DNA of 64,000 nucleotides from an uncultured Alphaproteobacteria bacterium (GTDB lineage: Bacteria; Pseudomonadota; Alphaproteobacteria; RF32; CAG-239), in NCBI GenBank assembly GCA_944391705.1, contig CALXUN010000004.1:13126-77125 (forward strand), read 5' to 3'. A program made the position numbers and the translations under genes. The notes beneath the pieces are model-generated. The model saw nothing but the letters and a program-made list of their open reading frames with translations. It was not told where the DNA came from and made no database searches. Positions 51,101 to 55,637 of the stretch are shown here, in pieces. The first letter of the stretch is position 1; the number at the start of each line of letters is the position of its first letter.

Positions 51101-51847
51101 ATGCATCTTAATCTGTCCGGCCGGTCATTCTTATGCAGAGTGTTGCAGATACGACGTAATTTTGCAACGACGTGTACACAAAAAAGCACACAAGGAGCAA
51201 AATTACAAGCAGATGCGACTTTATGCGGGAGAAGTATGGTGGAAATGCTTGGTGTGCTCGCCATCATCGGTGTCTTATCGGTCGGCGCTATCGCCGGTTA
51301 TTCTAAAGCCATGTTTAAATATAAACTCAACAAGCAGGCAGAACAATTAAATACGGTTTTTAACGCTGTCGCAAGGAATGTTCATTCTTTTGATAACTTG
51401 TCAAAAACTATGGATATTACAAATTATTTTATCAAATTGAATGAATTTCCGCTCGAAATGATAAAAAATGACAACAGTCGCATTTACGATATTTTTGATA
51501 CACCGATATCTATTGAATACGGCGTTTTTGCATTATACACCAGGTTAATTGTTAGTCTTACGCCAAATTTAGATGTCAAAAGTACCGAAAACCTGGAAAT
51601 TTGTCATAACATTTTAAAAATAGCCAAAGAAAACGCTGGAAACATTCATCATCTTTCCATCGTTGGCAACTACGGTCAAGAGGAACAAAGTTATTTAACC
51701 GTTTACGGAGATGCTTATATAACTAAAGGAAATTTATCTTTTAAAGAACTAACCTTAGATAACATATACAACTTATGTACATCTGTAATAGAAAAAGAAA
51801 ATCCGCATATAAAAGTCATATGGCACAGTAAAGGAAACACCCTGTAA
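51101..51847 (+). CDS. Type IV pilin/pseudopilin-like N-terminal-domain protein (orphan)
   Basis: The segment G-RSMVEML-GVLAIIGVLSVGAIAGY matches the prepilin consensus G|FTL(I/V)E(L/M)L with Glu at +5. The strong GGGAGGGG RBS before ATG 51101 implies an unusually long, basic 44-aa leader; the alternative start at 51236 would give no leader. Confidence 0.45.
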   Translation: MHLNLSGRSFLCRVLQIRRNFATTCTQKSTQGAKLQADATLCGRSMVEMLGVLAIIGVLSVGAIAGYSKAMFKYKLNKQAEQLNTVFNAVARNVHSFDNLSKTMDITNYFIKLNEFPLEMIKNDNSRIYDIFDTPISIEYGVFALYTRLIVSLTPNLDVKSTENLEICHNILKIAKENAGNIHHLSIVGNYGQEEQSYLTVYGDAYITKGNLSFKELTLDNIYNLCTSVIEKENPHIKVIWHSKGNTL

Positions 51848-53664: not shown

Positions 53665-53704
53665 TCTGACAGACCAATCACCCCTGATAATTCAGGGGTG
53701 ATTG

Positions 53705-54409
53705 TTATTCTCGTTCATTTTCCGGCCGGATACTTGAAGGTGTCTTTTTTTCTTTAATTTTCTCTGATACCCGTATGGTATCGCTTTCTCTTGACTGACG
53801 GACAATCTCTTTCATTTTTTGTATATTCTCAAGCATACCCGCATTACCATATTCCAATGCCGCTTCCTTATATTTTTCCCGCAGATATATATCACCGTAC
53901 GCTGCTATTAATTCAGGAGGTTCACGACGCCCGCCGTTGGCATTGGAATAAAAACTCCACCCGTCCACAAACGGTTTGATAATATCGAAATTTTGTTCTG
54001 TTTTATCCATTTGCCGCAACACATCTATCGGCATATAACGCCCGTTTTCACCGCCGTTTAAAAAACGCTCCATCGCCCGCCGACCGGCCGCACGCATCGG
54101 CAAAAACATATAATGCGCCTCCACTTTATAGCCGTCCTCGTGAAACTCACGTATCCGGCGTAAAACACTGTCGGCTTTTCCCATTGTGGTTTCTATCACA
54201 ACATTTAAGCGGTTTTCTTTACACAATTGCACACATTGTTCCAAAATATCACCGCTTTCTTCATGCACTTCCTCGGCATTCCAACCTTTATATTCCGGCA
54301 ACATCGCTTTTATTTCATCGGCATCCAGCACAATAAAGCTATCATCATATACCAACCCGCGAAACCCAGATGTCTTACCGCTGCCCGGACGACCACCCAA
54401 CACAATCAT
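53705..54409 (-). CDS. Zeta-toxin-family P-loop kinase
   Basis: Walker A GGRPGSGKT, LDADE (catalytic Asp region), VIETTMGK and RAAGRRAMER align to zeta/PezT UNAG-kinase motifs. ATG 54409 overlaps the upstream stop (TAATG). Confidence 0.55.
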   Translation of the reverse strand: MIVLGGRPGSGKTSGFRGLVYDDSFIVLDADEIKAMLPEYKGWNAEEVHEESGDILEQCVQLCKENRLNVVIETTMGKADSVLRRIREFHEDGYKVEAHYMFLPMRAAGRRAMERFLNGGENGRYMPIDVLRQMDKTEQNFDIIKPFVDGWSFYSNANGGRREPPELIAAYGDIYLREKYKEAALEYGNAGMLENIQKMKEIVRQSRESDTIRVSEKIKEKKTPSSIRPENERE

Positions 54410-54738
54410 TACGCGTGGTTGTTCTGTACGCATTTTAGAAGTTGCTCAGTTAATAACAATTTCTTTAATAATCTTCTCATGTAACGCTTCTCGTTCTTCG
54501 GTATACACCGCCGTTTTTTCTCACCGCTTAAACGGTATTTGTCAATCGTCATCCCTAAATGACTGATTTTGTTTTCAACTTCTTCTACTTTCTCTTTAAT
54601 TTCTTCCGACGTATAATGAATTCCCTGCCGGCTGACATAGCCATCCATCTCGGCAATGATGCCATCCAAAGTAACATCACCGTCATTGTGGGTCAAAAAA
54701 TATTCATATCCCGAAAACAGCCGGCCGTCTTTATCCAT
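54409..54738 (-). CDS. Hypothetical protein (109 aa), translationally coupled upstream partner of the zeta-like kinase (candidate antitoxin)
   Basis: Stop/start overlap TAATG with the kinase gene; acidic N-terminal half. Confidence 0.4.
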   Translation of the reverse strand: MDKDGRLFSGYEYFLTHNDGDVTLDGIIAEMDGYVSRQGIHYTSEEIKEKVEEVENKISHLGMTIDKYRLSGEKKRRCIPKNEKRYMRRLLKKLLLTEQLLKCVQNNHA

Positions 54739-54760
54739 TTTATCCCGTCCTTTTAAGATT

Positions 54761-55009
54761 TTATTTGCCCTGTTCCTGCGCTTTCTTTATTTCAGCTAAA
54801 CGGGCTTTTACCATTTTATCCATTTTACGCATGAACGGCGTCATCTCCGGATCTTCCGGGCCGTCGTAATCCCCGAATTCATAAACATTGCGACGGTAGC
54901 GTTCTTCCCAATATTCTCTTTTCCGCTGTTCCAGTTCGGCTATCTTTTTTTGTTTTTCTTCTTCGCTTAAACTAATCAGCTCTTCTTCGTTTAACTTCGG
55001 CTCTTTCAT
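54761..55009 (-). CDS. Hypothetical coiled-coil protein (82 aa)
   Basis: Charged helical sequence; first gene of the putative three-gene minus-strand operon. Confidence 0.35.
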   Translation of the reverse strand: MKEPKLNEEELISLSEEEKQKKIAELEQRKREYWEERYRRNVYEFGDYDGPEDPEMTPFMRKMDKMVKARLAEIKKAQEQGK

Positions 55010-55136
55010 AACTTTACTCCTTTGGATTACAGAGTATATATTTTTTCTTTATCATATAGCTCATATTTTGTCAATCTCAGACCTACAACCACAAAAAGGA
55101 TTCTCCGGTAAGGAGAATCCTTTTTTATCACTTTGT

Positions 55137-55637
55137 TTACGATGCCTGTTGCTGAATCATATAGTCTATATAGACACTTTTAAGGTTTTGAAATTCCAGG
55201 CTTTCGTTCAAGAGTTGTTCGCTCTCATCTCCAAGCTCTTTAAATTTTCTCAGCCAGGCCAGCATCAAATCTTTGTCTTTGCGCTGCAGCATCGCCATTT
55301 CCACCGCATCGCCCGGCATATGACACAAACACTCAAGCACCCTGCGGCAGGCGGCATCCGATCCTTTCTCAAAAACCCATCTAAGGTTTTCCTCAAAAAA
55401 ACCCCAGTTGTCATGTGACAACTTTAACAGTTCTGCCGAACCTGTAATCATCAGGCACTTTTCAGCTGCCGGCGACGGCCACATGGATTTAAGATATTCG
55501 GCTTTCCAGTTTTCCGGAGCTTTTTTAAAAAACTCAGCCTCTTCCGTTTCACTGACTGTACCGACATCTATCCGGAGAAATTTCTGAAATTCTGCCCAAT
55601 CGTTAGCTTTGAGCAGATTAAGCAATTTTCTTTCCAT
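55137..55637 (-). CDS. Hypothetical protein (166 aa)
   Basis: ORF with terminator-like hairpin downstream (aggattctccttaccggagaatcct at 55092..55125). Confidence 0.4.
   Translation of the reverse strand: MERKLLNLLKANDWAEFQKFLRIDVGTVSETEEAEFFKKAPENWKAEYLKSMWPSPAAEKCLMITGSAELLKLSHDNWGFFEENLRWVFEKGSDAACRRVLECLCHMPGDAVEMAMLQRKDKDLMLAWLRKFKELGDESEQLLNESLEFQNLKSVYIDYMIQQQAS

Follow-up and report, generated by a model that had tools for sequence, protein, structure and literature searches.

The window, by which we mean the whole 64,000-nucleotide (nt) stretch of DNA analyzed here, derives from an uncultured member of the Alphaproteobacteria, and our subject is a small minus-strand locus at positions 53705 to 55009. 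Three co-oriented open reading frames (ORFs) of 82, 109, and 242 or 234 amino acids (aa) are called there, and a preliminary description interpreted them as a toxin–antitoxin (TA) module of separate genes, in which a zeta-toxin-family kinase would be translationally coupled to an upstream antitoxin. We find instead, with near certainty, that the 109-aa and 234/242-aa ORFs are one disrupted gene, so what looks like three genes is two. The explanation that we favor, with a probability of roughly 60%, is a two-gene toxin–immunity cassette of phage derivation, similar to a type II TA system, whose toxin gene has recently been inactivated in this genome. The features on which this argument rests are as follows.

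54761..55009, minus strand: 82-aa ORF, from the ORF call
54409..54738, minus strand: the 109-aa ORF, comprising native residues 1–75 of the kinase and 34 out-of-frame residues
53705..54433, minus strand: kinase-domain fragment ORF, 242 aa from the ATG at 54433 or 234 aa from the ATG at 54409
53705..54738, minus strand: the disrupted gene (pseudogene) for a zeta-toxin-like kinase of ~344 aa with an N-terminal extension, delimited by alignment with orthologues
54514..54519, minus strand: run of six A (A7 or AAGAAAA in intact alleles), a 1-nt deletion that shifts the frame past Lys75
54446..54448, minus strand: TGA nonsense codon in the kinase frame, CGA (Arg) in locus L006, an allele with the same linker
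54371..54397, minus strand: Walker A motif GGRPGSGKT, in which Lys20 of the 242-aa ORF is K122 of the intact protein

When 5.8 billion proteins were searched, the closest matches were undivided proteins of 341–345 aa that span both window ORFs, with the N-terminal ~100 residues corresponding to the 109-aa ORF and the remainder to the kinase (we number proteins with P and loci with L). The best homologue, P0001, is 95% identical to the window kinase ORF, and the intact 341–345-aa orthologues share 56–88% identity with P0001. DNA alignments against the intact genes of L001, L002, and L006 reveal exactly two lesions in the window. The first shortens A7 to A6 and shifts the frame after the residues ...SGEKK; the second converts CGA to TGA, in frame with ATG 54433 as determined by coordinate arithmetic. 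When one A is put back, the frame spans 344 codons and is interrupted by one internal stop. The 109-aa ORF ends in 34 residues that are out of frame and have no counterpart elsewhere. Nor is the ORF acidic, as first described: its isoelectric point (pI) is 8.5 overall, and only the first 75 residues are acidic (pI 4.9, compared with 10.6 for the last 34).

These observations leave little room for the arrangement originally proposed, namely a functional three-gene module with the 109-aa ORF as an epsilon-like antitoxin coupled to a solitary 234-aa zeta kinase and the 82-aa ORF as a third component. The ORFs are real, as is the TAATG overlap at 54407–54411 between the stop of the 109-aa ORF and ATG 54409, and the identical arrangement is found in several assemblies. 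However, all close relatives encode one fused protein, the split is a deletion plus a nonsense codon, and the 109-aa ORF owes its net basic character to a tail read in the wrong frame. Moreover, the supposed antitoxin is the kinase's own N-terminal domain, which is fused in frame in relatives, integral to the kinase fold, and conserved even within large phage proteins (see below). The TAATG merely marks the end of the shifted frame, and the apparent coupling is therefore an accident of the lesion. We regard the three-gene module as hardly credible.

The disrupted allele is not peculiar to one assembly. The same 82 + 109 + 242-aa arrangement occurs in three others (ERZ28613692, Logan ERR4096375, and ERZ24773258), which come from at least two projects, and BLASTN shows 100% identity over 1341 nt, both lesions included, across all three. 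Because independent assemblies contain identical sequences, we consider the allele real; a sequencing or assembly error behind the split is ruled out by these 1341-nt matches, and a C-to-T nonsense mutation is in any case not a homopolymer artefact. Compared with four intact alleles, the window allele has 13 private codon differences, of which nine are synonymous and four (the nonsense codon among them) are not. With so few private changes, the inactivation is recent.

Residues 76–102 of the intact protein are absent from both possible products of the split gene. Among the missing residues are R83 and H87, which do not vary across 77 family members, and residues 81–94 make up the helix ahead of strand 1 of the P-loop core, as seen in a confident AlphaFold model of an orthologue. 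Reading the upstream sequence, we found no Shine–Dalgarno motif before either ATG 54433 or ATG 54409. Since there are two lesions, and since both products lack R83 and H87, the module is most likely defunct here and the kinase product probably non-functional.

It could be argued that the split allele is still active. Stop–start overlaps can support translational re-initiation, and re-initiation at the TAATG would produce a truncated kinase held by the 82-aa protein, making a two-piece or deregulated toxin. The fragment does retain the Walker A motif and the equivalents of zeta residues D67, E116, R158, and R171, little else in the allele has changed, and the small gene is undamaged. Yet the fragment is deprived of residues 76–102, and with them R83, H87, and the helix before strand 1, and it has no Shine–Dalgarno motif; two lesions within 70 nt are what would be expected of neutral decay after a first hit; and other lineages carry different disruptions of the kinase gene. 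We therefore judge an active split allele to be improbable.

The assignment of the kinase to the zeta-toxin family is well founded. Pfam Zeta_toxin (PF06414) matches residues 5–149 of the 242-aa ORF with 88 bits, compared with a gathering cut-off of 22.3 (E = 7.5e-25). A sequence search of the PDB with the kinase ORF returns weak zeta and PezT matches, and a profile of the subfamily matches both at E ~ 5e-7. The predicted fold agrees. We modeled the intact orthologue P0001 with AlphaFold from a 77-sequence alignment, obtaining a predicted local distance difference test (pLDDT) score of 90 and a predicted template modeling (pTM) score of 0.83, with the N-terminal 110 residues mostly above 95. 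The best Foldseek match to this model is zeta (3q8x/1gvn; E = 8e-10, TM-score on target 0.60), next come PezT (2p5t) and AvrRxo1 (4z8q and related entries, ~280 aligned columns), and PFKFB kinase domains, polynucleotide kinases, and ng_zeta1 rank lower. In the model, the N-terminal domain and the kinase make up one confident fold.

The catalytic residues of zeta, whose roles and motif definitions we take from the literature (PMC3062530, PMC6362051), are kept. In HMMER alignments, zeta K46, D67, E116, T118, and R158 correspond to K122, D141 (D39 of the window ORF, in LDADEIK compared with IDNDTFK in zeta), E183, T185, and R225, respectively; R171 corresponds, by inspection alone, to R234 (GRYxP compared with RATP in zeta). 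All six are invariant or nearly so in the family alignments, and in zeta Glu116, Arg158, and Arg171 serve nucleotide binding and catalysis (PMC6362051). From this conservation, the intact kinase is very probably an active phosphotransferase. The further claim that the motifs are those of kinases of UDP-N-acetylglucosamine (UDP-GlcNAc) did not survive in full, as the GTXR motif for that substrate is replaced by TTMG (zeta EGTGR becomes ETTMG, and Arg120 becomes Gly or Ser). The equivalent of zeta Glu100, E167, is conserved in the subfamily alone and not in the wider clade, which has an invariant motif of its own, H159-E160-E161 (HEE). Other zeta-like kinases act on UDP-N-acetylmuramic acid (UDP-MurNAc) or NAD (PMC5923241).

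In the intact orthologues, as in EzeT of Escherichia coli, a zeta-like kinase at the C-terminus is covalently joined to an N-terminal domain; in EzeT, a zeta toxin made of a single chain, that domain acts as an antitoxin in cis (Rocker & Meinhart 2015, as reported in PMC4826407). The likeness is one of architecture, and, unlike EzeT, the present proteins have a conserved separate partner gene as well. The invariant residues of the N-terminal region, and its retention inside polyvalent proteins, tend to argue against a purely inhibitory domain of the EzeT type and would favor a part in structure or catalysis.

The conserved unit is the 82-aa gene together with the long kinase gene, not a trio. 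The genomes with matches are uncultured Alphaproteobacteria metagenome-assembled genomes from the BRZ metagenome series, roe deer, goat rumen, and rabbit gut. In the window 22 nt separate the small gene from the kinase gene that follows it, and a homologue of the small gene directly precedes an intact kinase gene in L001 and L007, where the flanks are the same as in the window; in L004, L005, and L026, where the flanks are a histidine kinase, a response regulator, and a glycosyltransferase; and in L006 and L021, each with other flanks. In the most divergent members, L014/L015 and L016 (= L025), the small-gene homologue instead comes right after the kinase gene and retains the YEFGxY..P motif. 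A profile search recovers P0329 (E = 7e-10) and P0330 (E = 5e-8) as members of the small-protein family. The pair is thus linked, as type II TA genes generically are, in at least five flanking contexts and both gene orders, although this genome has no intact toxin gene. Because the pair is located in differing core-gene neighborhoods, it moves as a cassette. The expectation that all three ORFs would recur as a unit is therefore not borne out, but the 82-aa/long-kinase pair is conserved across contexts, and the small ORF, formerly regarded as an additional component, is the actual conserved partner.

The 82-aa gene is intact and single-copy in the window. Its product has a helix, a loop with the invariant motif YEFG.Y..P, and a second helix, and an AlphaFold model shows two helices and a loop at low confidence (pLDDT 69). 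Such a low-confidence fold would be compatible with folding on the partner, as is reported for ng_epsilon1. The family is narrow (83 proteins, none annotated) and matches nothing in Pfam, NCBIfam, PADLOC, or PHROG; the 109-aa ORF, for its part, has nothing significant in Pfam, NCBIfam, or PADLOC. Alleles of the small gene are mosaics that contain EERYRRN or ENERKYY, and TPFMRKMDKMVKARLAE, SPGVAMADKRIKEIIAQ, or TPDVAEWDKKVKARLAE, in varied combinations, and genes of 81–82 aa are present in two to three tandem copies in L007 (3439–4249), L010 (31–720), L008 (3639–4249), and L021 (2163–2978), an arrangement that is reminiscent of immunity-gene arrays. The 82-aa protein is consequently a candidate antitoxin or immunity protein, as judged from the company it keeps and the way its gene varies.

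Decay of the kinase gene, as read from the sequences, is repeated and independent across lineages. For instance, in L022 (3016–4001) the gene is truncated at the 5' end and carries an A7-to-A6 deletion in a different linker background, and in L023/L024 (3001–4028) one base is lost from another A run, leaving 63 + 279 aa. Additional damage includes a C-terminal frameshift in P0006, an internal deletion in P0007, and splits in P0018/P0098. Homopolymer A runs seem to be mutational hot spots of the kinase gene. The small gene is usually kept where the kinase is broken (the window, L023, and L024), and kinase loss accompanied by small-gene retention, diversification, and amplification is the pattern that we would expect of a toxin and its immunity protein or antitoxin. 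Some further irregularities were seen at these loci. The truncated kinase gene of L022 adjoins a gene similar to that for 3-methyladenine glycosylase. P0014 (375 aa) joins the first ~60% of a zeta-like protein to Glycos_transf_1 (PF00534/PF13692); this allele, from a short contig, is probably a chimera or a rearrangement. In L002 (4367–4989), RNase HII is called as two overlapping pieces (100 + 115 aa), compared with one 207-aa gene in L001, which could be a frameshift or an assembly error.

The recurrence of losses in A runs raises the idea that the A7 run is a phase-variation switch, in which slipped-strand mispairing turns the toxin on and off in populations. The change from A7 to A6 has indeed arisen in two allelic backgrounds (the window and L022), and a third lineage has lost one nucleotide from another A run. 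Against this, some intact alleles interrupt the run (AAGAAAA in L006), and a run of seven is short for efficient phase variation. In the window, restoration of A7 would not restore the protein, as the downstream TGA still stops translation; for this allele the TGA rules out programmed frameshifting as well as phase variation. Overall, we find such a switch very doubtful.

The wider relationships of the kinase lead to phages and mobile elements. An exhaustive phmmer search of 1.84 billion representatives gives 4,219 matches. In many proteins of 500–5,600 aa, residues ~8–280 (the N-terminal domain plus the kinase) align as one block, located inside the protein or at its end, and the nearest relatives by sequence are proteins of phages and conjugative elements, with 40–50% identity over the same residues. 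Pfam domains in these relatives include ART-PolyVal, PBECR3, InPase, ddrB-ParB, DUF5661, and SNF2 helicase, which identify them as so-called polyvalent proteins, in which zeta-like kinases were mentioned by Iyer et al. 2017 (PMC5512222). In the literature, we looked for a phage or polyvalent zeta kinase that had been studied experimentally and found just that computational mention.

Additionally, PHROG 16619 ('minor head protein') matches the aligned region, and relatives in cultured phages are annotated as minor head, head-morphogenesis, or zeta-ParB proteins. Among viral structures, the top matches are to phage proteins labeled 'zeta toxin domain', one of which is fused to Acb1, and relatives are encoded on 172 IMG/VR contigs. 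In a Rhodovarius prophage (L029), as in the viral contigs L043, L048, and L065, the gene immediately after the portal gene encodes a zeta-bearing protein of 530–640 aa. This is the MuF position, in which polymorphic toxins have been described, with small immunity ORFs downstream (Jamet et al. 2017, PMC5576092). The closest relatives of the window kinase are thus multidomain or portal-adjacent proteins of phages and conjugative elements, and the cassette is best read as being of phage origin. The window gene itself, by contrast, lies outside any phage or conjugative element: it is stand-alone and chromosomal, is not in a prophage, and has a lineage-restricted small protein upstream. In one locus, L019 (1–5989), a stand-alone relative of 421 aa (P0070) comes directly after genes for two large proteins, a ddrB-ParB protein of 1221 aa and an Eco57I-SNF2 helicase protein of 2441 aa, and a HicA/HicB pair lies in between; polyvalent and conflict genes are densely clustered here, on a contig of 50 kb.

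The same relatives allow a different account of the intact protein, according to which it is a phage-derived effector or metabolic kinase that, for example, acts on host nucleotides or immune signals or aids DNA entry, rather than poisoning its own cell. The small protein would then serve as chaperone, adaptor, or regulator, and the copies on chromosomes would be what mobile elements left behind. The clade is concentrated in head/portal modules and in polyvalent proteins, one of which carries the Acb1 domain directed against the cyclic oligonucleotide-based antiphage signaling system (CBASS), and the polyvalent zeta-like kinase has been proposed to aid injection or conjugation by weakening the cell wall (Iyer et al., PMC5512222). 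The absence of GTXR, and of any match to a defense model, would also fit. This account is less comfortable with a compact pair, in non-phage chromosomal contexts, whose small gene evolves fast and is sometimes amplified, and with repeated loss of the kinase while the small gene is retained, which is typical of toxin–immunity pairs. We consider it an unlikely alternative.

A third gene recurs beside the kinase in part of the clade. In the order found repeatedly, a zeta-like kinase is followed by one or two acidic/aromatic ORFs of 48–75 aa and then by a phosphohydrolase of the HD_4 family (PF13328), which is described as small-alarmone-hydrolase-like. HD_4 adjoins the kinase and small ORF(s) in L014/L015, L016, L019, and L027 (kinase/small ORF/HD_4 at L014:1447–3225, L016:2331–4258, L019:6001–8231, and L027:346–2772), and the HD_4 proteins of L014, L016, L019, and L027 share 43–54% mutual identity. 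Of the 80 IMG/VR loci that we fetched, 14 encode HD_4 closely following the kinase (viral loci with HD_4: L039, L043, L048, L065, L075–78, L088, L102, L106, and L108–110), and all eight distinct viral HD_4 loci inspected have an acidic/aromatic-rich ORF of 55–75 aa between the kinase and HD_4. The window contains no HD_4 gene. By analogy with a system discussed below, HD_4 may be an enzymatic antidote to the kinase. Homology between the small phage ORFs and the 82-aa family was considered and dropped on the strength of hhalign comparisons, and what we retain is a resemblance in position and motif alone; the strict motif [YW]E[FYW][GD] is found downstream of the zeta gene in one of 80 viral loci.

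Comparison with known systems clarifies what is shared and what is distinct. With epsilon/zeta of pSM19035 and PezAT of Streptococcus pneumoniae, the cassette has in common the PF06414 domain, the closest solved folds (3q8x, 1gvn, and 2p5t), the equivalents of the Walker A Lys, the catalytic Asp, Glu116, Arg158, and Arg171, and a small helical protein encoded immediately upstream in the same operon. It differs in that identity is ~20%, the kinase is extended by ~105 residues at the N-terminus and by a helical tail of ~60 residues at the C-terminus, TTMG stands in place of GTXR and is accompanied by the clade-specific H-E-E motif, and the window copy is a pseudogene. The partner is dissimilar too: the upstream small gene is predicted to encode not the three-helix bundle with which epsilon/PezA-type antitoxins block the ATP site but a protein with two helices, and this protein has no PezA-like helix–turn–helix.

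AvrRxo1/Arc1 of Xanthomonas and ng_epsilon1/ng_zeta1 of Neisseria gonorrhoeae also have a zeta-like fold with extra elements, and AvrRxo1 aligns over ~280 columns. They provide a precedent for substrates beyond UDP-GlcNAc (NAD and UDP-MurNAc) and for an inhibitor that is an unrelated small protein bound as an extended polypeptide (PMC5923241). Neither has a close sequence relationship to the present clade, and ng_zeta1 has a rewired topology and an OB domain. Finally, in Bxa/Bsi/BAH of Bacteroides stercoris a prophage toxin is countered by two immunity proteins, of which one binds it and the other is an enzyme that undoes its modification (PMC11699363). The relatives with HD_4 would parallel this system, in that they have a phage-borne toxin domain, a small candidate binder, and HD_4 as a possible reverser, but the enzymes are a kinase and a phosphohydrolase rather than an ADP-ribosyltransferase and an ADP-ribosylhydrolase, and the window lineage has no hydrolase.

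On the reading that we favor, the intact cassette encodes a P-loop phosphotransferase of ~344 aa, with the zeta/PezT/AvrRxo1 fold and an integrated N-terminal extension, and a helix–loop–helix protein of ~80 aa. The kinase would use ATP to phosphorylate a hydroxyl of a nucleotide-type metabolite, such as a UDP-sugar or an NAD-like molecule, and thereby poison the cell; the small protein would bind the kinase and block it; and in some relatives the adjacent HD_4 phosphohydrolase may additionally reverse the modification. In the window, the A7 deletion and the CGA-to-TGA change have split the kinase, and the small partner gene survives alone. The preliminary description was thus right in seeing something of the TA type, but it assigned the antitoxin to the wrong ORF and did not recognize that the toxin gene is broken.

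Several points weigh against this reading. Re-initiation at the stop–start overlap could still yield a truncated kinase domain. The loss of GTXR in favor of TTMG means that a zeta-like mode of killing should not be assumed, and the phage-borne kinase may be directed at the infected host instead of serving as an addiction toxin. Neither epsilon, PezA, nor any other known antitoxin is detectably similar to the small protein, which is devoid of the DNA-binding domain usual in type II antitoxins, and the pLDDT of 69 leaves its model low in confidence. The hhalign scores between the small phage ORFs and the 82-aa family (E = 0.07 and 0.1) are not significant, and PADLOC returns a chance-level match alone, with no defense-system model.

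The surroundings of the cassette contain the following features.

55017..55023, minus strand: ribosome-binding site AAAGGAG, 7 nt ahead of the ATG of the 82-aa gene, read from the sequence
55051..55080, minus strand: putative promoter, CTGAGA, 18 nt, TATGAT, upstream of the 82-aa gene (nine of 12 consensus matches in a scan)
55093..55125, no strand assigned: perfect inverted repeat of 14 bp with a 5-nt loop, 100% complementary, with T runs on both sides
53675..53704, no strand assigned: hairpin with a 13-bp stem between the convergent gapR and kinase genes, from a terminator scan

The promoter-like site, a match to consensus and nothing more, lies just downstream of the hairpin closing the preceding 166-aa gene; we read this hairpin (55093..55125) as the terminator of that gene and the upstream boundary of the module. 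The hairpin at 53675..53704 is a candidate bidirectional terminator. Downstream, gapR (GapR_DNA-bd, E = 1.5e-32) adjoins the module on the opposite strand. The other flank, past the 166-aa ORF, has an amino-acid permease and a pyruvoyl-dependent arginine decarboxylase (PvlArgDC), as assigned from the Pfam tables of loci that share identical module DNA. The module had been placed between gapR and this acid-resistance pair; gapR does adjoin it, but a 166-aa ORF and a hairpin intervene on the other side. No phage genes adjoin the module, whose neighbors are gapR and pyruvate kinase on one side and the arginine decarboxylase/permease pair on the other.

The intervening ORF (55137–55637, minus strand) is acidic and has no match in Pfam, NCBIfam, PADLOC, or PHROG. 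A gene of 162/166 aa is called at the equivalent position in L007–L013, by position and not by sequence, and the module DNA of L011–L013 equals that of the window. As no such gene is present in L004, where other genes flank the module, the 166-aa ORF is probably unrelated to the cassette. On the gapR side, a 248-aa ORF (51101–51847, plus strand) adjoins the pyruvate kinase gene, and its N-terminus, which contains GRSMVEMLGVLAIIGVLSVGAIAGY, looks like a prepilin-type leader (type IV pilin or pseudopilin) followed by a hydrophobic helix.

For the window, the apparent three-gene TA module is a two-gene cassette with a recently dead toxin, and nothing unusual operates here. The window itself is accordingly of modest interest, and the family-level triad of kinase, small ORF, and HD_4 is the part most worth attention. 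The clade is large, with more than 4,000 representative clusters and 172 viral contigs, and is characterized by the N-terminal extension, the missing UDP-GlcNAc motif, small partner ORFs, and often HD_4. Relative to zeta/PezT, its apparent novelties are a partner that is not epsilon, the N-terminal extension, an altered substrate motif, and, in relatives, the HD_4 companion. More tentatively, the intact relatives might represent a widespread toxin–immunity system of phage origin, consisting of a head-packaged or stand-alone zeta-like kinase with the N-terminal extension and a substrate pocket that differs from the one for UDP-GlcNAc (HEE, no GTXR), a helix–loop–helix binder, and, in many loci, an HD_4 enzyme that removes the added phosphate, a dual immunity centered on a nucleotide metabolite. 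The gut two-gene cassette would then be a domesticated form, repeatedly lost through inactivation of the toxin. If the kinase is toxic and its partners neutralize it, zeta toxins would gain a new substrate class and a binder-plus-eraser mode of immunity, and effectors delivered by phage heads would be linked to the chromosomal TA-like cassettes of gut bacteria.

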